Shown: positions 45,501 through 63,640, counted from the stretch's first letter. The stretch: DNA of 64,000 bases from Clostridia bacterium (GCA_050951325.1 JBMNIW010000012.1:64001-128000); one strand, 5' to 3'. Numbers and translations are program-made. Notes: generated from the letters alone by a model not told the origin.

Positions 45501-45552
45501 TTTTAAAAAGTTTTTCATCAAGCTCTTTTGACTTGTTCTTTTTGTAAAGCAT
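42523..45552 (-). CDS. GH106-like (alpha-L-rhamnosidase-type) glycosidase
   Basis: PFWAWN, LYDEDRWPSGFAGG, FTDEP, PGIDML, LSELYG. Confidence 0.8.
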   Translation of the reverse strand: MLYKKNKSKELDEKLFKNPTAEYRGTPFWAWNCKLNKDILGRQIEYMKEMGLGGFHMHSRTGMANEYLGEEFMDLVKFCVKKAEKEEMLAWLYDEDRWPSGFAGGLVTKEKRHRVKIMTFNPEDKQDDAKTLEECLETGKPFFFASYDIVLNDRGELASYTRIGRDEEGGNKWYAFLEIGGDNPWFNNQAYVDTLDKESMKKFIDITYEAYKEAVGDKFGESVPAIFTDEPQVHRRHYMKKALAKERTVLPWTHHLIEGFKKEYGYDILDYLPELIWSLEGGKVSRVKYHYSDYTTELFSRCFSDQCGDWCEENNLMLTGHMMEEPTLLSQSYAIGETMRHYRSFQLPGIDMLCDATEYTTAKQAQSAAHQYGREGVLSELYGVTNWVFDFRGHKFQGDWQAALGVTVRVHHLSWVSMAGESKRDYPATINYQSPWYKEYSYVEDHFARLNTALTRGKPVVKVGVVHPVESYWLHLGPEDTTSEKRWALEHNFQNITKWLLLGQVDFDFIAESILPDLCKEAGSPLKVGEMEYDTIIVPGMETMRRTTYERLKAFKEKGGKIVFVGECPKYMDATATNEIEALYNDSIKVPFEREKILEVLGEDKIINIYKDNEISDKYLYNLRDDENCMWLFIARGVHVNDKEDTQAENLKIVIKGEYYPKVYDTINGEVKDAEFSYENGNTVVYAKLHSYDSLLLRLGKLEKVEIMDNVSYTLEEPNVYLLDIAEYALDDEEYNEAEEILRADNKLRERLGWQLRRSAFPQPWTVEEEEIVHKARLRFTIHSEITVKEPLLAIEDAERIEIVFNGEKVASKVVGWFTDEAIKTVRLPEIKKGTNILEVSIPFGKRTNVEWCYILGDFGVVVEGTKKTITERSDKVRYGTITDQGMPFYGANIVYHNEIELEEDSALRVRIPKYRGSLVKVLLDSKEAGKIVYAPYELVIPNVKKGKHVLGLVLYGNRHNSFGTLHNCNEKTWWFGPDAWRTTGDSWSYEYSLKDMGVLEKPIVEILK

Positions 45553-47754: not shown

Positions 47755-48438
47755 TTATTTCTTTTTGTACTCATACTCTTTTTCATTTATAAGGTTGCCG
47801 TTTGAATAAAACTCCTTTTCTCCCACCAGATTTCCCTTAATGTCGTAATAGTAGCGGGTATAAAATATCACATTGTCCTCCGAAACATAGTATTCAGCTT
47901 TTAACACTTTCCCTTTTTCGTCGTTGATGTACTTTGTAAAGGTGGTGACATCACCCAACGTACTTTTTACCATGACAAGAAACCCATTCTCGTCATACTC
48001 ATATTCTTCTACAATGCCAGTGTCTAAAAACTCCATTATTGCCACATCACCATTCTCATTGAGAGTGACATCCACCACTTCTTTCGCTTCACGACCTTCT
48101 TTTAACTCCACAATCTTATAACCGGTCTCATCATAAATCCAGTTGGTAACCCCTTCAATTTGACCATCTTTGTTGAAATTAGTAGACTCAATTTCCCTTC
48201 CCTGCTCGTCGTACCTGATAACATTGTAGAATTCAATCTCATCCTCTTCGTTATACATAGTCTTCTTGACAATGTTCTGCTCGTCATTCTCATACTCATA
48301 GGTGATATAGGATTCTACATTGCAATCCGCATCCAAATTTATTTCCTTTGTCAACAAGTACTCCGTGCTGCTGTTGCAAGCTGCCAACATAAGCAGCGTT
48401 CCCAGTATAATACATACTGTTGTGATTCTCTTTCCCAT
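47755..48438 (-). CDS. YD/RHS-like repeat lipoprotein
   Basis: Lipobox LAAC; repeated YxYDxxG. Confidence 0.75.
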   Translation of the reverse strand: MGKRITTVCIILGTLLMLAACNSSTEYLLTKEINLDADCNVESYITYEYENDEQNIVKKTMYNEEDEIEFYNVIRYDEQGREIESTNFNKDGQIEGVTNWIYDETGYKIVELKEGREAKEVVDVTLNENGDVAIMEFLDTGIVEEYEYDENGFLVMVKSTLGDVTTFTKYINDEKGKVLKAEYYVSEDNVIFYTRYYYDIKGNLVGEKEFYSNGNLINEKEYEYKKK

Positions 48439-48450
48439 TTTTTCCTCCCA

Positions 48451-49218
48451 TCAGTTTGCCTTTTTATACTCATACCTTGTAATGCCTATCTGTATGTCAT
48501 ATGGTGAAAACACCTCAATTGCAACGAGGTTTCCATTTTTATCGTAGGTATGCTTCAGGTATCTTGCAAGTTCGCCATTCTGATAATCCTGGCGTTCAAG
48601 CACTCTCCCTTTTGAGTCGTTGATATAAATAGTATATACACCGTAAGCATCATCGTTCTTCACATGGCATTTAATGAGATATCCGCTTTCATCATACTCA
48701 TATTCCTCGATAATTTTTGAGTTTAAACTCGTCACATTCTCAATCTTTAAGGTATCACCCTTGTCATTCAAGATAACTTTTCGTGTAAATTTTATGTTGG
48801 AATCCTCATCATATGTAACCTCTGTATGTCCTGATTCCTCATAGGTATTCACTTTTGTTGAGTATGCAACACCACTTTTATTGTATAGTTTCTTTTCTAT
48901 TTCCCTACCCTTATCATCATATTTGTATACTGCACGGCTTTCCAAAGAGTTTCCAATATGCTTTTCTGAAATGACAAGCTTGTTGTCCTTGTCATACTGA
49001 TATGAGATATAGTGTCTAATATTCCCGTCCTTGTCGCAATCCGACTCCTTAACCAGATTATTCTTTTTGTCGTACTCATAAAGTATGTAATACCTAACGC
49101 TTCCATCTACATCATAGACTGTCTGCTTTGTCATCAAATATTCAATTTCGCCACCGCAGGCTGACAAAGCAAGCAATGATGTCAGCAGTACGAATAATAT
49201 GGATAATCTATTTATCAT
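48451..49218 (-). CDS. YD/RHS-like repeat lipoprotein
   Basis: Lipobox LSAC; repeated YxYDxxG/N; paralog of downstream gene. Confidence 0.75.
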   Translation of the reverse strand: MINRLSILFVLLTSLLALSACGGEIEYLMTKQTVYDVDGSVRYYILYEYDKKNNLVKESDCDKDGNIRHYISYQYDKDNKLVISEKHIGNSLESRAVYKYDDKGREIEKKLYNKSGVAYSTKVNTYEESGHTEVTYDEDSNIKFTRKVILNDKGDTLKIENVTSLNSKIIEEYEYDESGYLIKCHVKNDDAYGVYTIYINDSKGRVLERQDYQNGELARYLKHTYDKNGNLVAIEVFSPYDIQIGITRYEYKKAN

Positions 49219-49390
49219 GACATCCTCCAACTGTGTTTATACGATGATTATACTGTACAGACCATTTTGGGACAACTATACTTTATCCCTATTTTATTAA
49301 CACACCGTGAACAAATCTCACATTTCATATTTTCATAAAGGGTTGTAAACATATCCATACTATGCTAAAATCAGCGCACGAGGTGATTTA

Positions 49391-50530: not shown

Positions 50531-51064
50531 ATGGAAGTACGTGTATCTACTGTTGTAAATTACAATGAATACAAAACCTTTTTCAGGTTTTCAATGTTCC
50601 GGGGCAAAGGATACAGATTCAAATCTTTTGCTTCAGTTCTAATCATGCTTGCTGCAATAGCAGTATCATTGTCCGGAACCATCTTATACTATAACCCCCT
50701 TATGCTTTTTGCATTTATTTTCTCTCTGTTTATGACCATAACTCTTCTAATTATTTGGTTTTATATGCCGAGATATTCATACATAAATACATTCATAGCA
50801 AAAGGATCCAAGGACGATTTTGTGTTTTTGGATGATATATTCATGGTGAGTTCCGTAACTGAGTATATAAAAAGCCAGACAGAAATCAGCTACAGTCAGG
50901 TTTTTAAAATCTACGAAACCAACAAACACATATACATTTACCTTAGTCCTGGATTTGCTTACATAATCAACAAAAAGACATTTGTTTATCACGCAGACAT
51001 TGCGGAACTTAGAAGTTTTTTTGTATCAAAGATGCCTGATAAGTATATAAACTGTTTGTCATGA
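50531..51064 (+). CDS. YcxB-like membrane protein
   Basis: Two TM segments then ISYSQVFKIYET..IYIY....AYIINK. Confidence 0.7.
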   Translation: MEVRVSTVVNYNEYKTFFRFSMFRGKGYRFKSFASVLIMLAAIAVSLSGTILYYNPLMLFAFIFSLFMTITLLIIWFYMPRYSYINTFIAKGSKDDFVFLDDIFMVSSVTEYIKSQTEISYSQVFKIYETNKHIYIYLSPGFAYIINKKTFVYHADIAELRSFFVSKMPDKYINCLS

Positions 51065-51070
51065 AATATT

Positions 51071-51481
51071 TCATCTTAATGGTACAATCTTACGCCAAAG
51101 AGGAATCTTGAATCTTTGGCGTATTTTTTTTGCATGCAACGTTTCCTTTCTTCTGTATATCTTTGACACCACTCCAACCACATGTTCGGGAAAAACAATG
51201 CCGTCTGTTCTTTTGTACGCATCGCCTTTTGTCACGTATCCAAGGTCAGTTTTTCTGTAGACCCTGCGCAGGACAAATATACCTTCAGCAGGTTCAAGCA
51301 TAACTATGTCTCCGATATCAAGGTCCCTGCCATCGGAGTAAACAAGCTCTATCTTGTCAATTCCTTTTCTGACAAGAGGTTCCATATCACTTGTTATTGC
51401 AGTAAACCTGACACCTTCGCATACTTTCAAAAGGCTTCTAATAGCTGGGAGCAAATCCTTAACAAATATGTCCACAAGCAT
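51071..51481 (-). CDS. S24/S26 peptidase-like protein, degenerate active site
   Basis: TSDMEP, GDIVM, VLRRV, TKGDA, VVGVV. Confidence 0.7.
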   Translation of the reverse strand: MLVDIFVKDLLPAIRSLLKVCEGVRFTAITSDMEPLVRKGIDKIELVYSDGRDLDIGDIVMLEPAEGIFVLRRVYRKTDLGYVTKGDAYKRTDGIVFPEHVVGVVSKIYRRKETLHAKKIRQRFKIPLWRKIVPLR

Positions 51482-51482
51482 T

Positions 51483-51953
51483 CTAAACCCCTTTTATTAT
51501 TCTCCTTCTAATTCTTGCCACCAAAGTGTAGAGATATAACAGCTGCCTGCGAAAGATTCTAAGCTTTCTCCACATTGTAAAGACCAAACACCAAACAACA
51601 TTATTACAGTCAATGCTTAAATCTCCTCTGTATATTCTCTCAACCCTGCCAATAACATCACAAACAGGGACGCTTCCATCGCTGTAAAGGCAGGCATCCC
51701 CTATTGTATAAACCGTTCCCCCCCTCACCTTATATATTCTATGAAGTATATATTTATTGCATATTCTAAATAAAACTATATCCCCGAGCTTTACCTTGCA
51801 AAATGTACCGAGCAGAACCTTGTCTTTGTTGTGCCGTATAAAAGGCAGCATGCTGTTTCCGGACACAGTGAATTTAACCCTCAAGTTTTGTCTTAGCAAT
51901 TCCTCAACTAGAGGGAACAAATCCTTACACGACACTATTCTCTTATACGTCAT
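51483..51953 (-). CDS. S24/S26 family peptidase
   Basis: GNSMLP, GDIVLF, LHRI, IGDA, VIGRV. Confidence 0.85.
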   Translation of the reverse strand: MTYKRIVSCKDLFPLVEELLRQNLRVKFTVSGNSMLPFIRHNKDKVLLGTFCKVKLGDIVLFRICNKYILHRIYKVRGGTVYTIGDACLYSDGSVPVCDVIGRVERIYRGDLSIDCNNVVWCLVFTMWRKLRIFRRQLLYLYTLVARIRRRIIKGV

Positions 51954-51967
51954 TGCAGCCTTAACAC

Positions 51968-52786
51968 CTACAAATCAAGTATTGCCTTTTTTAGTGTCTC
52001 AACTGCCGTGTAATCCTTTACGCATTCAAGCTTCAGCATGGGTATGCTCGTTACCATGTCGTCAATATAATCCAGGGCATAGTTCATAAGCTCCACACTC
52101 CACTTTGGAGCAAATACATGTTCAGCAAGGTTTAGAAATGCTTCATAGGGATTTAGTCTTGTTGCCATGTTTCGTTTACTCTTTTCCAGCATGACAAATA
52201 CATCAATCTTTATCTTTCGATTCACAAATTCTCCTGATGTCCCGCACCAAGGCTGACCGAAGGCATGCCATACACCTTCGACTTTACGGCATAATGCTCT
52301 ATCCCCGTTTATGACCAATGCGTTTTCATAATCTCTCCACATTCTTGCATGGGTGGTCTTTCCACCAGCTGACTCCGCACATAGGATGATCCCTTTTCCG
52401 TTCCATTCAAGTACAACACCATGAAACACAACTCCTCCATAAGGAAGAACTGCGTACGAGAAGGGCTTTTTTAGTTCGTAGTATATTACATGGTCGATCC
52501 TGTCATTTTTCTTGCCTGCATAGATGCTCCACTTTCTCCAATCCTTACTTGCACTTAGAACGTTCTGGTTCTTAAGCTCAATTTTGTAACCATCTTCTGT
52601 TACATCAACCACCTTGTCGTCTTCAATAGTAATACAATTATTGTCTAACACAACTTCCAGCTCAAAATCGCTATCTTTCTTGTCACAAACAAAAGATTTG
52701 AACGCAAGGGCATGAGGTGTAAACATATCCAAATCAGCTTTGATGCAATATCCGCCAATGTTTAAATATGTATACTCCACTTCCAT
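51968..52786 (-). CDS. HPr-kinase-like P-loop protein (PadeK/ScmC-like)
   Basis: FHGVV, AESAGGKTTH, NGDR, PWCGTS. Confidence 0.8.
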   Translation of the reverse strand: MEVEYTYLNIGGYCIKADLDMFTPHALAFKSFVCDKKDSDFELEVVLDNNCITIEDDKVVDVTEDGYKIELKNQNVLSASKDWRKWSIYAGKKNDRIDHVIYYELKKPFSYAVLPYGGVVFHGVVLEWNGKGIILCAESAGGKTTHARMWRDYENALVINGDRALCRKVEGVWHAFGQPWCGTSGEFVNRKIKIDVFVMLEKSKRNMATRLNPYEAFLNLAEHVFAPKWSVELMNYALDYIDDMVTSIPMLKLECVKDYTAVETLKKAILDL

Positions 52787-52791
52787 TTCAA

Positions 52792-53106
52792 TCAGCTCTG
52801 TAACTCTCCAAAATAGAAACCTGGATGTTTTGTATTACCTATATTATCTTTCATCCCATTAGCATAAGGATCAAAGGTTATGTCTTTATTTAGATATCTG
52901 TCGAGCAAGTCATCTATAGCTGCAAATACTGCGGCAGCACTACAATCATGCAGTGTTCCGCTATTAAAACTAACATTATATGATTTATTATCAACTTTTA
53001 GAGTCCCTTTAAAGTTAAAATGTTTGTAGCCAAAACACGTATCTGCAATGCTTTCCCCTAAGCAAATTTCTTCAAATCTTAACTTTGGCTTTTCATACAT
53101 TTTCAT
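52792..53106 (-). CDS. Putative RiPP-like precursor (104 aa)
   Basis: Leader YEKPKL...GESIADT, Cys24 and Cys55, C-terminal Ser; overlaps rSAM stop; GGAG RBS. Confidence 0.75.
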   Translation of the reverse strand: MKMYEKPKLRFEEICLGESIADTCFGYKHFNFKGTLKVDNKSYNVSFNSGTLHDCSAAAVFAAIDDLLDRYLNKDITFDPYANGMKDNIGNTKHPGFYFGELQS

Positions 53107-54163
53107 ATATTTCACTCCCTTTCGTTGAGATTAGCTTTTCTAATATCTTATGACTGTATTCAGCCTCTCGGCATAGATATTTTGGATTGCCAAATAAACT
53201 CTTTGTTTCACAGTATCTCAAGGCAGGACATGCCATGCAAAACAACTTATACTTGCAATCGCGACATGCGTCTATTTGCTTCAATTCAGGCACAGTTTCC
53301 ACAAATGTCTCCCAAGCCTTTTCAAAACCCTCGGTCAATGGATCTGTCATAAACTCTCCAAGCAATTGGCATCCAATTAATTTCCCATCCCAAGTAATTG
53401 TATATGACTGGATACCTGCGTCGCATCCAAATAATTCGCTCTTCTTTTCTTCTACTGTATATTCTATCTCTATTGGCTTATCAATTAAATCCTTCGACAA
53501 TCTCTCCAAATACGCTCCATAAATAAAATCAATATTCTCCTCAGGTGACAATCTGCATGCATCCACTTCAGCAATGCCATGGCGTGTGGTTCTACAAACA
53601 ATCCTGCTCCTGCTAAAAGTAATGTCCTCTCCAAAACTCTTTGCCAGCATATATATGTTTTTGTAATCTTCAATGTTGTCTTTAATAATCGTTGTTCTAA
53701 TATTAATTGATGAAGGCAAAGTCGTTAATTTCTTCACTCCATCCAGCATTCTGTAAAAAGCATTGCCGCTACCGCACACCTTATCATAAATGGATGGATT
53801 GGAGCCATAAACAGATATTCCAATCTGATGAGGAGGACACTTTTCCAACGCATCCATTACTTTGTCGCTGACAAGAGTTGCATTGGTGTACAGGACAATA
53901 ACAAATCCCATTTTATATATTTCCGTATAAATCTCGCAAAAGTCCTTTCGCAGCATAGGTTCTCCACCTGTCAGCAAAAGCTGCAATGTTCCGCAGTCCC
54001 TTGCCTGCTTTGCGAGATCAATCCACTCTTTGGTTGTAAGTTCCCTAAGGCCCAAACTGCTTATTGTGTCCTCATCCACCCTGACAAGGCACATTTTGCA
54101 TTTCAGATTGCACCTGGCAGTCAGTTCAAAGGTACCGTTTAAAGGTATTCTCTCTTCGTGCAT
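53093..54163 (-). CDS. Radical SAM/SPASM-domain protein
   Basis: CNLKCKMC, TGGEP, YTNAT, CDAG...DGKLIGC, CRDC...FCMACP..C...LC. Confidence 0.93.
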   Translation of the reverse strand: MHEERIPLNGTFELTARCNLKCKMCLVRVDEDTISSLGLRELTTKEWIDLAKQARDCGTLQLLLTGGEPMLRKDFCEIYTEIYKMGFVIVLYTNATLVSDKVMDALEKCPPHQIGISVYGSNPSIYDKVCGSGNAFYRMLDGVKKLTTLPSSINIRTTIIKDNIEDYKNIYMLAKSFGEDITFSRSRIVCRTTRHGIAEVDACRLSPEENIDFIYGAYLERLSKDLIDKPIEIEYTVEEKKSELFGCDAGIQSYTITWDGKLIGCQLLGEFMTDPLTEGFEKAWETFVETVPELKQIDACRDCKYKLFCMACPALRYCETKSLFGNPKYLCREAEYSHKILEKLISTKGSEIYENV

Positions 54164-54164
54164 T

Positions 54165-54437
54165 TTATTCCTCCTCCATAAGAATACCAAAAGTTTTGAG
54201 TTCCTCCAAAAAGTCACTTGCGTCACTTTTTGCAATCTCCAAAGGAACCTCATACTCCCTCATAATACAAGAGACCAGCTCTTCAAAACCCTTCTCCTCT
54301 TGGAGTACTTCGAATATATATGCGCCTGTTTCATTTAAGACCATAATACCGTTAGCTTTTTTTATTGCCTCTCCAAGTGGGACTATAATATATGCATCTC
54401 TAATTTTCCTCAGTACAAAATTTTGATTGACACGCAT
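54165..54437 (-). CDS. PqqD/RRE family protein
   Basis: FVLRKI, LNETGAYIFEVL, EYEV....A..D...FLEEL...GIL. Confidence 0.9.
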   Translation of the reverse strand: MRVNQNFVLRKIRDAYIIVPLGEAIKKANGIMVLNETGAYIFEVLQEEKGFEELVSCIMREYEVPLEIAKSDASDFLEELKTFGILMEEE

Positions 54438-54450
54438 TTGCAGCACCTCG

Positions 54451-54717
54451 CTATTCTTCCAGCATTTTTTGCTCTTTAAGGATGGATATGAATGCCTGGA
54501 CATCCTGACGAGCTTCCTCTTCCGTAACGTCATATTCACTTATCAGACTGTCAACTAGTTCGTCAAATGTAGTCTCTTCCATTAGTTTACCGAACAAAAA
54601 CGCTGCTGTATTATTAACTGCAATTACACCATCCAGGTCCACCACACTATCTTCTACTGGAATAATAACGTTAGTACCTGCGATTTTGCGCATAATGTAA
54701 TTTCCGCAAACCTTCAT
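54451..54717 (-). CDS. PqqD/RRE family protein
   Basis: YIMRKIAG, VNNTAAFLF, EYDV.EEEARQDVQAFI..L. Confidence 0.9.
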   Translation of the reverse strand: MKVCGNYIMRKIAGTNVIIPVEDSVVDLDGVIAVNNTAAFLFGKLMEETTFDELVDSLISEYDVTEEEARQDVQAFISILKEQKMLEE

Positions 54718-54739
54718 TAACCCTCCTCCCTTCTTAATA

Positions 54740-55630
54740 CTAACCAACATAGACCACAAGGCGCTGTGTAACACTCACCCCTTCCGAATTACTTACAGAA
54801 TAAGTGACAGTGTACTGACCTTCCTTATTCGTATCCACTTTGCCCGAGAAACCAACTAACTCCGTTAAATCACCATCCTTCTGATCATACGCACTCTTTA
54901 TATACTCATAAGGATTAAATACATCCCCTTTTTTCAAAGCCACGGTTTTTCTTGTAAGTATCAGGGTAGGGCCTGCACTACTACCTTCTACTTCAACAAA
55001 AATGGACTTGCTGGCAACATCGTTGAACATGTTTTGTACAGTGAAAGTAAATTTGTATTTGAAAGAGTCTGCAAATGCTTCATAGTTATACGAAATGGTC
55101 CGAGTAATGTCATTTCCAAAGCCGTCATCCGCCCTTATGGCATCCTTTTCAATCAGAACAGTCACCAAATCATCAAGATCCTCACTGGTTATTACAACAT
55201 CATTTGAAACATGTATTGACGGTCCTGTGTAGTTTATGAGGCTGAGGCGTCTTTCATTGATTGCTAAATTCCCATTTGAGCCAACCACGCTGTACCTTAC
55301 AATCTTCTTTCCAATTGAAGTGTCAGTAACAATAATTACATTGACCTGGTCGGTGATGTCTGTCTTGCCGTCGATATCCAAAGCAGTCACACCTTCCATA
55401 ATGTCAAAAGCCTCTTTTCCAGAGTACTTCATATCACCGAGCGAAAGTCTGATGGTTGGTTTCTTGTTTGAATCAACACCGCTAATGTTTGAAAGGCTCG
55501 CTTTAATAATATCCTTGTTGATTGCATATGCTATGTCCTGATGAAAAAAGTACAACATAAACAAACTGACTATCGATACTGCGGCAAGCACTATTATCGT
55601 TATATTCTTAACAATCTTCAATTGCATCAC
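54740..55630 (-). CDS. Membrane-anchored Ig-like repeat (DUF5011-like) protein
   Basis: N-terminal TM; three repeats GVTALDIDG.DIT / ADDGFGNDIT / AYDQKDGDLT...VDTNKEGQYTVTYSV. Confidence 0.75.
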   Translation of the reverse strand: MMQLKIVKNITIIVLAAVSIVSLFMLYFFHQDIAYAINKDIIKASLSNISGVDSNKKPTIRLSLGDMKYSGKEAFDIMEGVTALDIDGKTDITDQVNVIIVTDTSIGKKIVRYSVVGSNGNLAINERRLSLINYTGPSIHVSNDVVITSEDLDDLVTVLIEKDAIRADDGFGNDITRTISYNYEAFADSFKYKFTFTVQNMFNDVASKSIFVEVEGSSAGPTLILTRKTVALKKGDVFNPYEYIKSAYDQKDGDLTELVGFSGKVDTNKEGQYTVTYSVSNSEGVSVTQRLVVYVG

Positions 55631-55633
55631 CTC

Positions 55634-56845
55634 CTAATTAACAAGACCATATTCTTCAAGAAGAGCAAGCCTCCTTCTTGCAACACTCAAACCTTTAACC
55701 ATTCTAGGCTCTTCTGTTCTTCTCATATATTTAATAATTCTTAATACCCACACAACAGGAAGTAAAAAAGGATGTTTCTGAAGTACTGGGTACGAATATT
55801 TAAGATACTCTCTGGAAGGAAAGCATGCCTTCAAAAACCCGAAAATGACATTCCCTTTCTTCCTGTTTAAAGATGCCACCTGTACAACCGGTCCTGAAAA
55901 AACCCTCTCGCTACTGGACTTTCCAAACACTCCTCCTTCAATCATGTCAACAAGCAAAGCAGCACGGTTTGTTACTTTCAAACTTTTGCCAAAAGGAATG
56001 CCAGAAACGTCTAAACTTATCCCCAGTTCATTATTTCCTATGTCAAACAAGCAGTAAAGCAATTGCTCACAACCGAGTTCTCTAACTATTGCAATTATTT
56101 GCTCCCAGCAAATCTGCTCATAGTACTTTTTTGCATAAAGAACCGAATCCATACACTGCCTTATACCTACACCATAACTTATCAAGTGTTTATATAAGTG
56201 AAGGAAGATAAACAGGAAGTGATCCGTGTGACAAAGGGAGTATATTTCACATCCTTCGATTTCCAGCGTTATGCATCTATCAAAGGATTCCCTAAAGTAT
56301 TTATTAAGCGCCTTCCTTACACCCGATAAACCAAATGGATTAACATGCACTTCAATACATAGATTTAAATCAGGGGATATATATGAAATTGCCTGAGCAT
56401 CCTTTGGGTCTTTGTTTGCACTTGCTGCATCCACTTTGTATCCGTATCTTAAAAGCAAGTCATGGCAAAGATCATAATCTTCCTTTCGTATGTAAATATC
56501 TTCGTCAGAAGATGTCCGAAGATCCGGTGATTCATACAAACTTCTTACAACAAGACCTTTTAACACAAGAGGCTTAACTCCGTTTTGTACAAGATAATTG
56601 TACACCTTAATGAAAGCAAAAGTTCTTTTAGTCTGGCTTATCATGTTGTATAACGCCTGACTACGCATACTCTCTTTACCTTCAAACTCAAGCAAACTTG
56701 CAGCATCATAAACAAGAGGGAGAAGGTTGTGTTTGCGGGCAAGGGTAAATACCTCATCAAGGTCCACATCTAATTCAATATTCGGCTTTTGGTTTCTTAT
56801 ATGACTTTCAATAAGCTTCAAGAACGTCTTGTAGGTCGGGTTCAA
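55634..56845 (-). CDS. Nucleotidyltransferase family protein (NTP_transf_5-like)
   Basis: VLKG...LY...RTSSDEDI, IEVH, HLYKH...GVGIRQCMD; TTG start after GGAGG. Confidence 0.85.
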   Translation of the reverse strand: MNPTYKTFLKLIESHIRNQKPNIELDVDLDEVFTLARKHNLLPLVYDAASLLEFEGKESMRSQALYNMISQTKRTFAFIKVYNYLVQNGVKPLVLKGLVVRSLYESPDLRTSSDEDIYIRKEDYDLCHDLLLRYGYKVDAASANKDPKDAQAISYISPDLNLCIEVHVNPFGLSGVRKALNKYFRESFDRCITLEIEGCEIYSLCHTDHFLFIFLHLYKHLISYGVGIRQCMDSVLYAKKYYEQICWEQIIAIVRELGCEQLLYCLFDIGNNELGISLDVSGIPFGKSLKVTNRAALLVDMIEGGVFGKSSSERVFSGPVVQVASLNRKKGNVIFGFLKACFPSREYLKYSYPVLQKHPFLLPVVWVLRIIKYMRRTEEPRMVKGLSVARRRLALLEEYGLVN

Positions 56846-58586
56846 GACTTTCACCTCCGCCAAATAACGTACACTTGCCGCCACTTACTCGGTACACTCT
56901 GTCACAAATACCAAGCACGCTTGGCCTGTGTGTTGTAAGTATGCAGGTTACTTCGCCCTTTATCCTCTTTATATTCATCAGAATCTTTCTCTCGGTATCA
57001 ACATCGAGGCTGCTGGTGGCTTCATCAAGGAGCAGTATTGGAGCTTTCCTTATCAACGCCCTGGCAATAGAGAGCCTTTGTATCTGTCCTTCCGAAAAAT
57101 TCTTTCCTCTTTCCTCAACATTTGAGTTGATTCCATCCGGCAGGTTTGATACAAAATCATACGCATCTGCCATTACCAACGCATCCTTTATTTCCTCTTC
57201 TGTTGCATCGGGCTTTGCCAGTCTCAAGTTATCTGCAATTGTACCTGAGAATAACATATTGTCCTGAGGAACATAGGAAAAAAGAAGTCTTGCCTTGTCG
57301 TCAAACACAATGTTTTTATGCTTCTCGTTAAAGGGATAAATGCCAAGTCTTCCTTTTTGATGTTTTAATTGTCCAAGCAATATCTTAAGCAGGGTGGTTT
57401 TTCCTCCTCCCGAAGGACCAACCAGTGCAATGGTCTCCCCAGGCCTTGCCAGGATGCACGCATCTTCAAACACCTTCTTTCCTTTTCTGTAACTGAAGGA
57501 AACATCCTCAAGACTAATTACCACTCCTCTTTTCCTTGCACTTTTAAGTGTCTGCTCATCATTGGTAGCATCACAGTCATCTGTTGGCTTTTCAATGATT
57601 TCCATAATTCTTCCTGCTGATGTTGTTGCAGATATGGAAGATGGGATTAAGGATATTAAGGAAGAGAAGCTTGATCTGAGCATACCTGCGAGCTGCAGGA
57701 ACAATACCATTGTTCCAAAGGTAATGAAACCTTGGTACAATCTGAATACCGCCCAGCCAAAACAAAGATATGATACAATTAGTCCGGTTATCGACATAAA
57801 CAGATGAGTGTGTATTGAAAACTTGTTGTAGTCCAGGCTTGTTGTCTTAAAGTTTTCCAACTGCTCTTTGTGTCTGTTTGTAAATACAGACTTCAGCCCC
57901 AGAGCTTTAATAGCTGCAATATTTACAAAAGACTCTTCATGGTAGGACATAAGTTTCGAACTTGCTTCCCTCATTTTTTTGTTGTGCTTCCTCATTTTCT
58001 TTACCAGTAAATCCGATACAATCATTGATACTGGTGCACTGGCAAGAGCCAATATAGCCATAACATAGTCAAAGTACATGATGATTATAAATGAGCCGGT
58101 AAACTGCAATACCCTTGTTATGAAGCTTGGTATCATGCCTACAACACTACCCGCAACAGTCCTTGCATCAGAGTTGATTCTATTTAGAAGGTCTCCTGAA
58201 TGAAAGTCCATTAAATGCTCCGAGTCAATATTTAATATGCTGTCATAGATGTCTATTCTTATGTCATTTATTACCCTTAAATCAATTTTTGAGGTAATCC
58301 TGTTGGTTAGTGCTCCTGTCAATATCTCAAACAAACCAAAAGATATGTATATTACTGCTATCGTGACAATAACTTTTATCTGCCTGTTTGCAAGGCTGTC
58401 TATTAAATATTTGGAGGCAACAGCATTGAGAAGCCCGAATATTGCGCCAATGGAAAAGAGGAAGATATAAAATGCGACTTGTGCTTTATATCTTTTTATG
58501 TACCCTAATATCCATTTTGCCTCTATCCACATTTCTTTTAAAGACCCGTCTTGGATCTTCCTCTTTATGTTAAACAGATTCACCAT
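56808..58586 (-). CDS. ABC exporter, fused permease/ATPase, no C39 peptidase domain
   Basis: Six-TM domain, GPSGGGKTT, FSEGQ, LLLDEATSSLD. Confidence 0.92.
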   Translation of the reverse strand: MVNLFNIKRKIQDGSLKEMWIEAKWILGYIKRYKAQVAFYIFLFSIGAIFGLLNAVASKYLIDSLANRQIKVIVTIAVIYISFGLFEILTGALTNRITSKIDLRVINDIRIDIYDSILNIDSEHLMDFHSGDLLNRINSDARTVAGSVVGMIPSFITRVLQFTGSFIIIMYFDYVMAILALASAPVSMIVSDLLVKKMRKHNKKMREASSKLMSYHEESFVNIAAIKALGLKSVFTNRHKEQLENFKTTSLDYNKFSIHTHLFMSITGLIVSYLCFGWAVFRLYQGFITFGTMVLFLQLAGMLRSSFSSLISLIPSSISATTSAGRIMEIIEKPTDDCDATNDEQTLKSARKRGVVISLEDVSFSYRKGKKVFEDACILARPGETIALVGPSGGGKTTLLKILLGQLKHQKGRLGIYPFNEKHKNIVFDDKARLLFSYVPQDNMLFSGTIADNLRLAKPDATEEEIKDALVMADAYDFVSNLPDGINSNVEERGKNFSEGQIQRLSIARALIRKAPILLLDEATSSLDVDTERKILMNIKRIKGEVTCILTTHRPSVLGICDRVYRVSGGKCTLFGGGESLEPDLQDVLEAY

Positions 58587-59997
58587 AATACCTCAACTTC
58601 CTGTAGTAGGGATATTTGTATAAATAACCGTACCTGTAACCGTAACTGCCTATACCCGTTTCTGTGAATGTTAAAACTGCTCCGAGCACATTCACGCGGC
58701 TGTATGACAAAGACGTCAAAGAGTCTATTATCAGACTTCTTTTGGCATAATCCTGTCTTATGCAGTAAATTGCATGGTCCGCATATTTTGCAAAAGCAAC
58801 AGCATCTGGAACCATGTGACATGGTGGAGTGTCTATTATTACAAAATCAGCCATGTTTCTAAGCATTGCAATAACTTCTACAAGGGAGTAATGTGACAAT
58901 ATCTTGTTTGGATTTTGATATGATTTGTGTCCTGCAAGTAAGCTAATATTGTATTTGTTAATATAATATATGCTGTGTTCTATGGTTTGTTCTCCCTCTA
59001 CAATCTCCCCGATACCTTTAAGAGGCATGACAATATCCAACATGTTCAGGACCGAAGGATTCCTCAAATCACCATCTACAAGGATTACTGAGTAACCCAT
59101 TTGTCCAAGAGAAATACTTAAGTTTATGGCAACGGTTGTCTTTCCTTCCTGGGGTACACTGCCTGCTATTACAATTACATTGTTCTTTTTGTCCGATGTT
59201 TCCTTTAGCAATTTCGTTCGTATCGAACGGATCGACTCGTTAAAAGCACTTCCTACTTTCTCATTCAGGATGTTTATGGAATAATCAATGTCTTTTTTTC
59301 GTCTCTTGAACTTCACCACCGGAAGCACTCCAAGGCATTCGAGGTTGAGTATTTTCCTTACATCATCCACCTTTCTTATTGTTGTTCTGGTCAATGCGTA
59401 AAGGAATATAAATCCGCAGCCAAGCACGAACCCTGCCAGAAAGCCTATCTTTGTCATACGGGAATAAATAGGTCGGTTTGTAGGAGTTGTCGGCACTTTA
59501 GGGGATGACAGCATGTTCATCTTTGTATCTCCTATTACAAACTCAGCCACTTTTGGATAGTTCCTAATTACCGAGTTAAGTATGTTGTATGCGTCATTTG
59601 GGTTTATGCTGGTTACCATTATTGTAAAAAGATTTGTGTCGGGTATTGCTACAGCGTATATACTTCCATTAAGGTAAGGTACGTTCAGATCCTCGCACAC
59701 AATTTCCTGAAGAAGATAGCTGTTTAAAATGTATGGAAATGTTACCGCCATCTGGGATGCGGTCTGACTATTGTAGTAGTAGCGGTAGCTGTACCCTGCG
59801 TAATTGTCCTCATATGCTGCAAGAATTGTGAAGGTGGCTTTTGATGTGTATAACGGAGTATACTTTCTTGCAGAGACATAAAAGAACAGCCAGGACATAA
59901 CGCTTGCAAGCACAAGCACAAGATACCACAATCTTTTTATCCCCTTAATCAAGTCACTTAGAAGTACCATAATATCTATAGAGGTTTCATTATCCAT
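58570..59997 (-). CDS. Wzz/CpsC-CpsD fused BY tyrosine kinase (copy 2)
   Basis: Two TM flanking loop; GSVPQEGKTT, VDGDLRNP, IIDTPP; Tyr tail YGYRYGYLYKYPYY. Confidence 0.9.
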   Translation of the reverse strand: MDNETSIDIMVLLSDLIKGIKRLWYLVLVLASVMSWLFFYVSARKYTPLYTSKATFTILAAYEDNYAGYSYRYYYNSQTASQMAVTFPYILNSYLLQEIVCEDLNVPYLNGSIYAVAIPDTNLFTIMVTSINPNDAYNILNSVIRNYPKVAEFVIGDTKMNMLSSPKVPTTPTNRPIYSRMTKIGFLAGFVLGCGFIFLYALTRTTIRKVDDVRKILNLECLGVLPVVKFKRRKKDIDYSINILNEKVGSAFNESIRSIRTKLLKETSDKKNNVIVIAGSVPQEGKTTVAINLSISLGQMGYSVILVDGDLRNPSVLNMLDIVMPLKGIGEIVEGEQTIEHSIYYINKYNISLLAGHKSYQNPNKILSHYSLVEVIAMLRNMADFVIIDTPPCHMVPDAVAFAKYADHAIYCIRQDYAKRSLIIDSLTSLSYSRVNVLGAVLTFTETGIGSYGYRYGYLYKYPYYRKLRYYGESV

Positions 59998-61411
59998 GAC
60001 GCACCTCCTTTGTGTCGTCTTTCTTCTTATACAAAGGGACTCTTCTGTAATAGTAGCTTTTATACATGTTGTTTTTTAGAGAGTTAATAAAAGGAAAACC
60101 TTTAAGATTGTTTAAAACAACGCCAAGCAAATGGCATTTGCTTTGCTCCAGTCTGTCAATTGCATCATTTATTTCTCCAACTCTTGCAAAGTCCTGTTTA
60201 ACTACTAGTATTGAAGCATCTGTAATGTTTGCGAGTATTTCTCCATCGGACACTGCACTAAGCGGCGGTGTATCTATGATTACGAAGTCCATTTCCTTTG
60301 CGTATCCGTCCAAAAGATTTTGAAAATCCTTGCTTGCAAGAATCTCTGCAGAGTCTTTGTATGATTCCTTGTTCAGCATGAGCCATACATTGCTCCTTTC
60401 ATCAACTTTTGGTTTTTTCCCCTGGATGAAATCCCTAAAACTACCTGCATCCTTTTTCCCTAGTATTTTGTACAACGCAGGCTTTTTTAGATCCGCATCC
60501 AACAGTAGAACTTTATGGTTGTTCTCAGCGAGAGTTAGCGCAATATTTGCACACACTGTGGACTTTCCTTCGTTTTCATTTACGCTTGTAACCAGTATGC
60601 TTTTCAATCCCATACGTTGGCAGCTGTTTTCTATTTTCATGCACAATTTTTTGTATGAGCATACAAAATCAAAACTTGCAAACATATCAGTAACAAGTGG
60701 CGTTCTCTTTGCCCGCTTTATAATCTGCCTTATGGTTTTGTACTTTTTCTCATGCCTTATGGTTGAAAGCAGTTTTGTATCCAGCTTGGAATTTGCTTGT
60801 TTTTCATTCTTTACAGTATCCCTAAAGTATGAAAGAGCACAAACTGCACAGGTTGACAAAAACGCACCTGCTGCAAAGGACAGTTTTTTTATCCTTGACT
60901 CATCCATGCTGTTTACCGGCCACCCTGACATCTCAATGTCTTCAATGACTTCAAGGTGCGCATTCCCATATATGTAATCAGACACAAGCCGGTAGTTTTC
61001 AATAATGAGCTTCAAGGTCTTGAAAGCATCTTCAGGATTTTTGGCTGTTACTCCAACCACCAAAAGGTTTGTTTCAGGTATGGCGTAGGCATCAATTTTA
61101 CCAGGAAGTTCATCATACCCTGCAATTTGAGACGCTTTCTCCTTCAAAATATCACTGTCCATTATTTGGGTGAAAATGTTTGCCATTTCTATCGTGGTAC
61201 TTAGATTGGCATACATGGAACTGGTTGCGTCTTTTGTACTCACTACAAATGTAACCTGACTTCTGTACTCAGGCACATATGTGTATCTGACATATGATAC
61301 TGCAAGCATCGCAACAACCGCTCCGCCAAGTACTATTGCCCACAAGTTGAAAAGAATATCTCTCAGCAAAGTAAAGATATCGATATCTTCGACACTAAAC
61401 TCTTTCTCCAT
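59990..61411 (-). CDS. Wzz/CpsC-CpsD fused BY tyrosine kinase (copy 1)
   Basis: TSVNENEGKST, LDADLKKP, IIDTPP; Tyr tail MYKSYYY. Confidence 0.9.
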   Translation of the reverse strand: MEKEFSVEDIDIFTLLRDILFNLWAIVLGGAVVAMLAVSYVRYTYVPEYRSQVTFVVSTKDATSSMYANLSTTIEMANIFTQIMDSDILKEKASQIAGYDELPGKIDAYAIPETNLLVVGVTAKNPEDAFKTLKLIIENYRLVSDYIYGNAHLEVIEDIEMSGWPVNSMDESRIKKLSFAAGAFLSTCAVCALSYFRDTVKNEKQANSKLDTKLLSTIRHEKKYKTIRQIIKRAKRTPLVTDMFASFDFVCSYKKLCMKIENSCQRMGLKSILVTSVNENEGKSTVCANIALTLAENNHKVLLLDADLKKPALYKILGKKDAGSFRDFIQGKKPKVDERSNVWLMLNKESYKDSAEILASKDFQNLLDGYAKEMDFVIIDTPPLSAVSDGEILANITDASILVVKQDFARVGEINDAIDRLEQSKCHLLGVVLNNLKGFPFINSLKNNMYKSYYYRRVPLYKKKDDTKEVRHG

Positions 61412-62247
61412 TACGCATTCCCTTCTTCAACAACACATACCATGCTTGTTGTATAGGTTTCGGCACCTTCGCTCACACTATAGTAGATTTTGTACTCTCC
61501 TGGCTTGGATGTGTCCAGATCGGAATAGATATTCACATGGGAGATGTCAAGAAACAGACCGTCAATGCCCGTTACAGACTGTATGTAATCTTTTGGGTTA
61601 ACTTCCTCACCAGTATTTACATACAAAACGTAACTCTCCAGTTTAATCTTTGGCGTTTTGACATTCCTTTCCCTGACCACCACCTCAAAGCTCAAATCCA
61701 CCACATCGCCTTTTGAATTTGTAACCTTGGCATTTACTGTGTACACTCCGGGTACATTTGTTGTCAGATTGCCAATGTCATACTTTATCTTGTTGCTTAT
61801 GTCCCCATCGATGAGACAATAGCATTTTATGAAGTCTTCCATGTTTATAGTACTGCCGATATAAAACTGTGGTTCATGGTCAATTTGAAATCTTGGTGAT
61901 TCGTAGTCTGTGTACTTTACCTTTCTTGTAAGTTTGGACACGTTGTTATCGCTGTCGCACACCGCATACGTTATGTTGCATACGCCCTTCTCAAGAAACT
62001 TTGATACGTTTTCAATGAGTATTTTGTCAGTCACATCCCCATCCTTGTCGTCATGGGCAGACAACCCTTCAAACAACTTGTCCTTATCCATAATGCTCAC
62101 CTCAATTACTTTACGGTCGCTTGTTATGCTCGGATATGTTCCATTGGTTTTTACTCCGTACACTCCAAACTGGATAAAGTAAAAGATGCCTGTCACAATG
62201 GACAAGAGAAAGACAACCATTCTGAAAATTTTCACAAAAACCCCCAC
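61411..62247 (-). CDS. Membrane-anchored Ig-like repeat (DUF5011-like) protein
   Basis: N-terminal TM; AHDDKDGDVT, IDGDISNKI..PGVYTV, LDTSKPGEYKIYYSV. Confidence 0.75.
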   Translation of the reverse strand: MGVFVKIFRMVVFLLSIVTGIFYFIQFGVYGVKTNGTYPSITSDRKVIEVSIMDKDKLFEGLSAHDDKDGDVTDKILIENVSKFLEKGVCNITYAVCDSDNNVSKLTRKVKYTDYESPRFQIDHEPQFYIGSTINMEDFIKCYCLIDGDISNKIKYDIGNLTTNVPGVYTVNAKVTNSKGDVVDLSFEVVVRERNVKTPKIKLESYVLYVNTGEEVNPKDYIQSVTGIDGLFLDISHVNIYSDLDTSKPGEYKIYYSVSEGAETYTTSMVCVVEEGNA

Positions 62248-62963
62248 CTATCAATATTCTCGTCTTTTAATATTCTCCTTGGATTTATATAAAATAACGT
62301 TTTTGCATATTCAGAACCGTAGCGGTAACAAATATAATCGTACGCTTCGTCTAGTCTGGTGGTTCTTTGGTATGGACTGTGGGCGTCACTAGCGACTATA
62401 TGTACAAGACCATGTTTAAGCATGTATTTGGCCAATTTTTGCGCAGTTGCTCCAAATTGACCAAGTACGCTCCCTTTGTTAACTTGAAATATACAACCTT
62501 GGCTTGCCAGTTGCATTAGTAGACTTGTGTCATCATAAAACAGCTCATATCTTTCGGGATGTGCAATGATTGGAATGAGATTTGCGTTTATGATAGATTT
62601 GATATTTGTAAGAATGTTATGAGTTAAGTCTAAGACGGGTAATTCGATTAATATGTATCTGGTGTTGTTAATTGTTATCAGTTTATTGTCCTTTACTAGG
62701 TCAACCACATCTTTTGTAAGGTAAATTTCCATTCCTTTGTACAAGGTTATTGGTATTTCTTTTGTTAAATCCTGCAGTTTCTTAAAACAGTTTTCGAACC
62801 ATTCTCCATAGTAGTTGTTATGTATCGGGATATTACTGTGCGGCGTTGCTACCAATGCTCTTACTCCGCACTGACATGCCATCTCCAGCATTCTGACGGA
62901 TTCGTAGTAAGACACAGAACCATCATCGACACCTGGTATCAGGTGTGCATGAATGTCTATCAT
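62232..62963 (-). CDS. CpsB/CapC PHP-family tyrosine phosphatase
   Basis: IDIHAH..PGVDDGS, ATPH, AHPERY, ASDAH. Confidence 0.92.
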   Translation of the reverse strand: MIDIHAHLIPGVDDGSVSYYESVRMLEMACQCGVRALVATPHSNIPIHNNYYGEWFENCFKKLQDLTKEIPITLYKGMEIYLTKDVVDLVKDNKLITINNTRYILIELPVLDLTHNILTNIKSIINANLIPIIAHPERYELFYDDTSLLMQLASQGCIFQVNKGSVLGQFGATAQKLAKYMLKHGLVHIVASDAHSPYQRTTRLDEAYDYICYRYGSEYAKTLFYINPRRILKDENIDRWGFL

Positions 62964-63057: not shown

Positions 63058-63086
63058 ATTATATCAGTGCAATTTATTAAAGTAAA
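63058..63086 (-). promoter_or_regulatory. sigmaA promoter of the 14-gene operon
   Basis: TTTACT-N17-TATAAT with extended TG. Confidence 0.6.
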
Positions 63087-63148: not shown

Positions 63149-63640
63149 CTACTCTTTCCCTTTAATAAGCGCTTCTTTATCAAGCACTGCAAGTTTTACA
63201 TCAATGTCATAATCCTGAAGAAATTCTTTAATTGCAGAGGTAGCCACTTTAAGCGCTTCATCTTTAGGATAGCCATATATTCTGCTTGATATTAAAGGAA
63301 AAGCTATGCTTTTACATTCATGCTCCACAGCCAGTTTCAATGAGTTTGTATAAGCATTGTGTAAGAGACGCAGATTATCCTCTTTACTCCACTGGCTGTA
63401 TATGGGTCCTGCAGTGTGGATTACATACTTTGCAGGCAGATTAAAGCCAGGGGTAATAACTGCTTCTCCTGTTTTTATGGGTGCAAGTTTGTTGCATGCT
63501 TCTTGAAGTTTGCTTGCTCCGGCAGCTCTAAAAATAGCTCCGCAAACACCGCCACCCATTTTTAGCTGGGTGTTGGCAGCGTTGACAATCGCATCCACCT
63601 TCAATTTTGTTATGTCCTGCTGAACAATCTCAAATGACAT
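63149..63640 (-). CDS. Macro domain protein
   Basis: DIT, AIVNAAN, GGGVCGAI, VIHTAGP, SIAFPLIS. Confidence 0.92.
   Translation of the reverse strand: MSFEIVQQDITKLKVDAIVNAANTQLKMGGGVCGAIFRAAGASKLQEACNKLAPIKTGEAVITPGFNLPAKYVIHTAGPIYSQWSKEDNLRLLHNAYTNSLKLAVEHECKSIAFPLISSRIYGYPKDEALKVATSAIKEFLQDYDIDVKLAVLDKEALIKGKE

Follow-up and report, generated by a model that had tools for sequence, protein, structure and literature searches.

Linear polyphosphorylated peptide-type genes joined to a capsule-type tyrosine-kinase head in a Clostridial operon

In a 64,000-nucleotide stretch of a Clostridia bacterium genome (GCA_050951325.1 JBMNIW010000012.1:64001-128000; hereafter the window), 14 co-oriented open reading frames (ORFs) at 51071-62963 on the minus strand join a peptide-modifying pathway to a set of capsule-type tyrosine-kinase genes (Table 1). 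One half of this operon is of the RiPP (peptide made on ribosomes and modified after translation) kind. It carries all five core gene types of the linear polyphosphorylated peptide (LPP) clusters and, judged by its genes, is a Clostridial LPP subtype that bears a radical SAM (rSAM) enzyme and has serine-ended precursors of ~100 aa. The other half, here called the head, consists of a CpsB phosphatase, a membrane protein with immunoglobulin-like (Ig-like) domains (Ig1) and two fused Wzz/bacterial tyrosine kinases (BY-kinases), WzcA and WzcB. The pairing of head and LPP-type genes is recurrent and widespread, being found in many gut and digester Clostridia, and it usually heads a full exopolysaccharide (EPS) operon. 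The interpretation that we favour, at a probability of about 0.6, is that an LPP-type pathway has been fused to an autonomous BY-kinase head that ties the peptide to surface-polysaccharide control in trans.

The recurrence was established by searching from the head. Fused Wzz-BY-kinases are common in Clostridia (1193 matches at E <= 1e-10 among 8000 scored candidates). A scan of genome contigs with WzcA as a single protein returned nothing, whereas a scan with an alignment of WzcB relatives succeeded and matched 586 stretches, the best 80 of which supply the counts given here for Wzc loci. Genes in these loci were labelled by single-sequence phmmer at E <= 1e-4, and a locus was taken as fully flanked when at least 7 kb was available on each side, as was so for 47 of the 80. 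The exact order CpsB-Ig1-WzcA-WzcB was present in 42 of the 80 loci, and Ig1-WzcA-WzcB in 18 more; an Ig1 homologue preceded WzcA in 71, and across the whole set both Wzc paralogues keep Walker A, A' and B motifs and tyrosine-rich tails. The remaining labels comprised CpsB (53 loci), the ABC exporter (48), the HprK-like kinase (27), S24 peptidase (27), rSAM (22) and nucleotidyltransferase (21), and the recurrent downstream families were GT1 (28), LCP (20), GT2 (19), CapD-like (17), EpsG (9) and sortase (8).

At least two LPP-type families lay beside the head in 24 of the 47 fully flanked loci (51%). Twenty-one of these 24 also carried EPS genes, among them LCP, CapD, priming transferase, GT1, GT2 and EpsG, and three did not. 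The other fully flanked loci had EPS genes only (10), neither LPP nor EPS genes (6) or a single LPP family (7), and in total Wzy-type EPS genes were present in 38 of the 47. In four loci (L140, L151, L153 and L158) S24 and ABC genes are interleaved between WzcB and CpsB. On the WzcB tree the LPP label requires 19 changes and is carried by 13 of 25 Lachnospiraceae rows and 9 of 23 Oscillospiraceae rows. An earlier reading of the window from its sequence alone (the sequence-only reading) had set co-conservation of Wzc and CpsB genes with the RiPP genes as a test; seen from the Wzc side, the outcome is positive in the 24 loci, in Lachnospiraceae and Oscillospiraceae alike. It had also made the lack of polysaccharide genes a defining trait, which does not hold: because 21 of the 24 LPP-linked loci carry EPS genes, the EPS-less copy is a minority form (3 of 24).

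Searching genomes and metagenomes from the HprK-like kinase gave 25 related loci, which were labelled by phmmer with the 14 window proteins and in which the conserved block is PqqD-rSAM-small ORF-kinase-S24. Family clustering of 24 loci recovered rSAM in 22, kinase in 22, the small ORF in 19, PqqD in 18, S24 in 17, ABC in 6 and nucleotidyltransferase in 4, and no further recurrent family in those 24 cassette loci. The window kinase is 41-50% identical to the cassette kinases. A distant homologue (25-31% identity) occurs in 24 of 45 genomes of the window's order; in all 20 loci examined from that order (L040-L059) a co-oriented PqqD gene follows the kinase and S24 and/or a nucleotidyltransferase usually come next, an arrangement that agrees with the published LPP gene order. 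None of these 20 LPP-like loci has Wzc or CpsB within about 10 kb. At the scope of the GTDB family there was the window's own genome only. We conclude that coupling of the two halves is recurrent and not obligatory, since the closest relatives of each half occur alone.

In 11 Wzc loci, including L121 (9145-14184), L159, L147, L152, L097 and L151, a giant protein of ~1,700-2,600 aa with BNR or Ig-like repeats adjoins the kinase or nucleotidyltransferase. In L001 (12575-17770) a 1,731-aa protein follows the nucleotidyltransferase.

The two halves of the operon

All 14 ORFs were confirmed, and their junctions range from overlaps of up to 89 nt, smaller if the likely true starts are used, to a gap of 14 nt. 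These overlaps and abutments support the single tight operon of the sequence-only reading. Its assignment of the genes to named families, with no polysaccharide-synthesis gene among them, also agrees with the ORFs and with Pfam and NCBIfam, in which the 14 proteins had no glycosyltransferase, Wzx (flippase), Wzy (polymerase) or sugar-nucleotide enzyme match, and no match to an asparagine-synthase-like (lasso) cyclase.

Table 1. Features of the operon, in order of transcription (coordinates in the window)
Feature	Coordinates	Strand	Basis and remarks
Candidate promoter	63058-63086	-	TTTACT, 17-nt spacer, extended -10 TG-TATAAT; best site upstream of cpsB
CpsB-type PHP phosphatase, first operon gene	62232-62963	-	PF19567, 219 bits; Cps4B 165 bits, below cut-off
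Ig1, membrane protein, N-terminal hydrophobic segment and Ig-like domains	61411-62247	-	PF16403, 3 stretches
WzcA, fused Wzz and BY-kinase	59990-61411	-	TIGR01007, 118.5 bits; PF02706
WzcB, fused Wzz-like and BY-kinase	58570-59997	-	TIGR01007, 113.2 bits
MsbA-like ABC exporter, LppD analogue	56808-58586	-	PF00664 and PF00005; top NCBIfam MsbA_rel, MsbA, below equivalog cut-offs
PF14907 nucleotidyltransferase, LppN/PsmN analogue	55634-56884	-	145.7 bits; true start may be downstream
Ig2, second Ig-like membrane protein, within RiPP half	54740-55630	-	PF16403
PqqD1, discrete RRE	54451-54774	-	PF05402, 55.8 bits
PqqD2, second discrete RRE	54165-54539	-	PF05402, 50.8 bits; likely true start near 54437
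Radical SAM/SPASM peptide maturase	53093-54253	-	PF04055; likely start 54163
Precursor, 104-107 aa	52792-53115	-	No family match; YxxPxL leader, invariant Cys27, C-terminal Ser
HprK-like kinase, LppK/PadeK analogue	51968-52786	-	P-loop and invariant motifs in alignment A1
S24a, SpI-like leader peptidase, LppS analogue	51483-51953	-	PF00717; TIGR02228, archaeal-type signal peptidase I, below cut-off
S24b, S24a paralogue	51071-51481	-	Catalytic Ser to Asp, His to Arg; best match TIGR02228, below cut-off
RRE, RiPP recognition element.

The head has the features of capsule control, namely a CpsB phosphatase, a Wzz domain and a BY-kinase that carries a tyrosine cluster along with the Walker A, A' and B motifs. 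WzcA and WzcB are paralogues with 27% identity, and both exceed the TIGR01007 cut-off of 108 bits. WzcA keeps Walker A, A' and B and has 5 tyrosines among its last 40 residues; WzcB likewise keeps its Walker motifs and has 10. A metagenome contig, L079, is 87-88% identical to the window over 13 kb and matches it in the arrangement of the genes from WzcA to S24b, and in comparison with it the ratio of non-synonymous to synonymous divergence (dN/dS) is 0.10 for WzcA and 0.06 for WzcB.

In the RiPP half, the rSAM protein shows a CX3CX2C motif and C-terminal SPASM-type cysteines. Its best NCBIfam match is ScmE (111 bits), followed by WgkB (99 bits), both below cut-off, and its nearest solved structures are PqqE, SkfB and SuiB. 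Family matches of the HprK-like kinase are weak (ScmC, 21 bits), with no Pfam match on the window protein and weak ones on its relatives; it is homologous to the kinases of HPrK-PqqD-S24-nucleotidyltransferase loci in the same bacterial order. The nucleotidyltransferase translation shows a D-E-D motif. Ig2 is 24% identical to Ig1 and falls in the same BLAST cluster. The two RREs differ in their closest counterparts: PqqD1 is the best match for the RREs of most stand-alone cassettes (16 loci in L060-L078, 4 of L080-L083, and L001), and PqqD2 for those of Wzc-linked loci (21 loci, against 7 for PqqD1). The N-terminal extension of PqqD2 contains an in-frame stop in L079. Sequence searches of the PDB gave PqqD1 a weak TfuB1 match only, and gave no match for S24a, the HprK-like kinase or the nucleotidyltransferase.

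The sequence-only reading had two S24/S26 peptidases here, and both indeed belong to the family. Ser34 and His71 of S24a lie in columns conserved in 53 of 55 homologues, whereas among the 55 S24-like proteins only S24b and its orthologue in L079 have neither residue. S24b is under purifying selection (dN/dS 0.12) and is probably a non-catalytic partner.

Exactly one precursor-type ORF is present in the window. In an alignment of 20 small ORFs (A4), Y7, P10, A24 and C27 are invariant and the C-terminal residue is serine in all 20. A profile built from them and run against 1.84 billion representatives matched 161 proteins with E <= 0.001, which upholds the precursor as a real gene of a conserved family; a word-based search with the precursor itself found its own cluster only. 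Among the best 150 of the 161 matches, 114 are at most 140 aa long, and of these 112 have [YW]xxPx near the N-terminus and 85 a terminal serine; the 36 long matches align to a DxDxDG-type loop only. The small ORF always adjoins the kinase, and in Wzc-linked loci all 14 candidate precursors beside kinases (13 loci, picked by eye) have both a YxxPx leader and a terminal serine. The precursor is mostly disordered in an AlphaFold2 model of low confidence (predicted local distance difference test score 51.8), in keeping with a role as peptide substrate.

In the stand-alone clade (A4; L060-L082) most precursors have an EF-hand-like DxDxDG...E loop after a conserved CWG. It is this loop that makes the precursor profile match giant repeat proteins; the window precursor has lost it.

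Comparison with known systems

LPP clusters (lppA-K-B-S-D-N of Bacillota) were described by Popov et al. (Nat Commun 2026; PMC13381572), the sole description found in a literature search with LPP terms. According to its main text, the gene set comprises an HprK-like kinase, a discrete RRE, an archaeal-type SpI-like protease, a PF14907 nucleotidyltransferase and an MsbA-like exporter; the precursors are 35-200 aa long with a leader YxxPxVLxHQxIxFETxxS; the kinase polyphosphorylates core serine, the published phosphosite being Ser3 of the core; and the SpI-like enzyme removes the leader with help from the RRE. The same text already reports LPP clusters embedded in capsule loci of Bacilli. The RiPP half matches this gene set and cannot be called undescribed, as it was in the sequence-only reading. 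The terms 'radical SAM', 'Wzz' and 'Clostridi' do not occur in that main text.

The window operon resembles these clusters in its kinase, discrete RRE, SpI-like peptidase, PF14907 enzyme and MsbA-like exporter, in a long precursor with a YxxPx leader, in its place in or beside capsule or EPS loci with a BY-kinase a few genes off, and in having no macrolactam cyclase. Since all five core gene types are present and a cyclase is not, the RiPP half probably works like an LPP cluster. It differs in its Clostridial host, in the added rSAM/SPASM enzyme, in having a second RRE and a second, catalytically dead peptidase, and in sharing its operon with two fused Wzz/BY-kinases, CpsB and an Ig-like protein, with no EPS genes in cis. 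The window leader has the YxxPxL part of the LPP motif, and the remainder follows another conserved pattern: an invariant A..C(W/F)G here after YxxPx as against the published HQxIxFETxxS. The invariant C-terminal serine might be a site for core-serine polyphosphorylation.

Comparison with the phosphorylated lasso peptides bears on the same residue. PadeK and PsmK phosphorylate the C-terminal serine of paeninodin and pseudomycoidin, and hexose is added to the C-terminal phosphate only with the help of PsmN, an enzyme of the PF14907 type (PMC6993621). By analogy with these enzymes, the C-terminal serine of the window precursor may be phosphorylated and further decorated. Shared with these systems are an HprK-family kinase, predicted here to act on C-terminal serine as theirs does, the PF14907 type, an RRE for a [Y/W]xxP leader and an ABC exporter. 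The window operon differs in its rSAM enzyme, in a precursor about five times longer, and in having neither lasso cyclase nor B2 cysteine protease. A lasso cluster was rejected because no macrolactam synthetase (C) or B2 cysteine protease match was found among the 14 proteins.

The SynChlorMet cassette (ScmC/ScmD/ScmE/ScmF) likewise combines a kinase-like protein, PqqD and rSAM/SPASM, but it has two rSAM proteins where the operon has one. It was rejected on scores of 21.2, 19.3, 111.2 and 64.9 bits for ScmC, ScmD, ScmE and ScmF, against equivalog cut-offs of 125, 100, 400 and 400. A maturase that acts on a precursor cysteine, as in sactipeptides and ranthipeptides, is conceivable: the rSAM protein has visible SPASM-type cysteines and SkfB and PqqE among its nearest structures, and Cys27 of the precursor is invariant.

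The head resembles the CpsB/CpsC/CpsD modules of Firmicute Wzy capsules in its PHP phosphatase, its Wzz-like membrane domain and its BY-kinase with Walker A/A'/B motifs and tyrosine cluster. It differs from them in the fusion of modulator and kinase into a conserved A/B pair, in the Ig-like membrane protein that always lies between CpsB and WzcA, and in the lack of glycan genes in cis. Orphan BY-kinase/phosphatase modules also exist, as in TkmA/PtkA/PtpZ of B. subtilis. A search that left out most subscription journals found no paper describing either the rSAM subtype or a CpsB-Ig-Wzc-Wzc head with RiPP genes.

How the two halves may be connected

We propose that one or both RREs bind the YxxPxL leader of the ~100-aa precursor, that the core is altered by the rSAM/SPASM enzyme, for which the invariant cysteine is the most likely site, and that the HprK-like kinase puts one or more phosphates on the invariant C-terminal serine, where the PF14907 nucleotidyltransferase might elaborate them. 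S24a would cleave off the leader, possibly partnered by the catalytically dead S24b, and the MsbA-like ABC pump would export the peptide product. CpsB, the Ig-like protein and the two fused Wzz/BY-kinases, predicted to be active, would form an autonomous membrane signalling head. In most relatives a Wzy-type EPS operon begins with such a head. The window's genome has a canonical EPS locus, which includes split CpsC/CpsD, a priming transferase and GT2 genes, ~90 kb away; because EPS genes are not in cis, the head would most likely tie production or export of the peptide to surface-polysaccharide or biofilm control in trans. The two halves may act on one product. Such a peptide might also be displayed or polymerised at the cell surface, as the sequence-only reading supposed.

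Several observations weigh against this proposal. In a quick 70-row tree the window kinase falls within the stand-alone cassette clade, outside the clade of Wzc-linked kinases. None of the 23 closest relatives of the kinase, rSAM and precursor core has Wzc within 10 kb, and only one of them (L065) has CpsB, while the three nearest WzcB relatives (L161, L084 and L090) carry the four-gene head alone amid housekeeping genes, without LPP or EPS genes; an obligatory coupling is therefore not sustained. The best 80 of 586 stretches are a non-random sample in which related genomes are not independent. In L079 the kinase gene (L079:7978-8796) has an AAA to TAA change at codon 168, and WzcA (L079:28-770) has a local frameshift and an in-frame stop, which could reflect decay in that lineage or assembly error. 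The leader shares only YxxPx with the LPP motif, and the published phosphosite is Ser3 and not a C-terminal serine.

The window kinase is the deepest branch of its stand-alone clade (24 rows; SH-aLRT, an approximate likelihood-ratio support, 99), which is sister to a clade with 21 Wzc-linked kinases. From this placement, from the stand-alone WzcB relatives and from the differing resemblances of PqqD1 and PqqD2, the operon looks like a merger of two modules, each able to live alone. The merger is maintained, and all genes shared with L079 that have synonymous differences show dN/dS of 0.06-0.24.

One locus bears on CpsB in particular. L065 (1-8668) has two tandem cassettes, the first-named kinase clade (stand-alone) being represented by one and the Wzc-linked clade by the other; next come a split ABC gene, CpsB, and enolase and ilv genes, with no Wzc. 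This tie of CpsB to RiPP genes without Wzc hints that CpsB may act on the phosphopeptide.

The two modules could also be merely juxtaposed, with the head regulating distant EPS genes or other proteins, in the manner of an orphan tyrosine-kinase module, and the cassette independently making a peptide for secretion, for instance an antimicrobial or signal. Their proximity would then stem from common regulation, or from the gathering of surface and biofilm genes in islands, rather than from a shared product. We regard this as possible, though clearly less probable than coupling. It accords with the solitary occurrence of each half in its closest relatives, with the 16 of 47 fully flanked head loci that lack any LPP family (6 of them lacking EPS genes as well), with the patchy distribution and varied contexts of the cassette, and with the joint rise in expression of the lpp, lasso and eps genes during stationary phase, between which no link is shown in the main text of PMC13381572. 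It accounts less well for the translationally overlapping genes and single operon of the window, for the Ig paralogue within the RiPP half, and for S24 and ABC genes placed between WzcB and CpsB elsewhere. Moreover, co-location in 51% of loci, a value raised by kinship, is far above chance for genomes with one or two copies of the kinase. That the head is instead the decaying remnant of an EPS operon, with Wzc, CpsB and Ig left over after loss of the glycosyltransferases, appears very improbable. The sequence-only reading had named homologous loci running on into Wzy operons as the sign of such a remnant, and this is partly the picture, 21 of the 24 LPP-linked relatives continuing into EPS genes; a second, partly broken CpsD/CpsB set close by and the WzcA frameshift in L079 point the same way. 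Nevertheless, the four head genes of the window are intact, with Walker motifs and tyrosine clusters, they are under purifying selection (dN/dS 0.06-0.11 at dS, the synonymous divergence, of 0.45-0.79), and in their nearest relatives these four genes are retained together on their own.

We give equally little credence to protein tagging, in which the enzymes would decorate a larger surface protein (Ig-like here, giant BNR-repeat elsewhere) with the 107-aa ORF as adaptor. The giant BNR-type proteins beside the kinase in 11 loci and the 1731-aa protein of L001 would suit such a role. Against it, the small ORF has an RRE-binding YxxPx motif, an invariant C-terminal serine and constant adjacency to the kinase; the Ig proteins have no YxxPx-type leader, and the window operon encodes no giant protein.

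A bolder version of the coupling that we favour, which seems to us doubtful, is that the exported peptide becomes a covalent part of the surface polysaccharide, as a phosphodiester-linked peptide-glycan conjugate. The kinase would phosphorylate the C-terminal serine and the PF14907 enzyme would activate the phosphate as a nucleotide-linked anhydride, in parallel with cytidylyltransferases acting on glycerol phosphate; the peptide would then be joined to a sugar through a phosphodiester. Peptide-capped or peptide-primed EPS could result, with the CpsB/Ig/WzcA/WzcB head gating its assembly and length. If true, this would supply the missing function of LPPs, and ribosomal-peptide-glycan conjugates would form a new class in Clostridia.

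The biological role of LPPs and paeninodins is stated as unknown by the authors of PMC13381572 in its main text, and the pairing described here may point to a function of these phosphorylated peptides. Compared with the loose co-location noted there for LPPs of Bacilli, the link with capsule-type genes in Clostridia is both closer and more widespread: in about half of the fully flanked loci, LPP-type genes adjoin a specific four-gene tyrosine-kinase head or are interleaved with it. A subfamily that bears rSAM and whose precursors of ~100 residues end in serine is now defined, and the purpose of LPPs becomes testable, the question being whether surface polysaccharide is modified, primed or regulated by them. 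Cultured carriers are available among the loci, for example in the Dorea, Anaerostipes and Fusibacillus records, and the window copy, having no glycan genes in cis, is a natural minimal case for the function of the head.

Transcription, divergence and surroundings of the window copy

The operon is flanked upstream by a macro-domain gene (63149-63640) and downstream by a convergent YcxB-like gene (50531-51064); neither the operon nor its flanks encode a priming transferase, glycosyltransferases, Wzx or Wzy. The single sigmaA promoter of the sequence-only reading did not stand out, a promoter scan giving 38 sites against 38.0 expected by chance. RNA-library contigs (X1-X4) matched in pieces of at least 99% identity, at depth 2-6, scattered over most genes, and long contigs at depth 19-48 extended from the macro-domain gene as far as the 5' part of cpsB. 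These contigs were used neither for nor against co-transcription, because they are blind to strand, transcript ends and the singleness of a transcript, and because DNA carry-over is possible. An apparent joint between 51993 and 57182 in X3 and X4 was discarded, its shorter side being only 21 letters.

Synonymous divergence from L079 is uneven along the operon. It is 0.5-0.8 in the Wzc, ABC and nucleotidyltransferase genes, 0.29 in the PqqD genes, 0.11 in rSAM, 0.13 in the kinase and 0.48 in S24a, and the precursor has dS 0 with one non-synonymous change. This dip around the precursor (51968-54253) suggests that the core has recently recombined or been transferred between lineages.

About 7 kb upstream, just past the end of the window, lie a second CpsD, a TGA-interrupted CpsB and a NusG-like gene. 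In the locus that contains them (L013; G000:C12:126000-145999), a LytTR response regulator and a GHKL histidine kinase are followed by a ricin-type lectin protein and the CpsD; after CpsB and the NusG-like gene come a GH88 gene split in two ORFs, KduI, an SDR gene and two DUF7309/DUF6930 proteins. It is thus a second, partly broken capsule-control set beside uronate-degradation genes. On the other side of the operon, two ORFs at 47755-49230 have faint RHS-repeat matches; the 259-aa ORF at 48451-49230 has no counterpart in L079, which indicates an insertion or deletion between the two lineages there. At 42523-45552 a 1009-aa protein with a GH106 (alpha-L-rhamnosidase) domain is encoded, adjoining a 495-aa ORF without a Pfam match.

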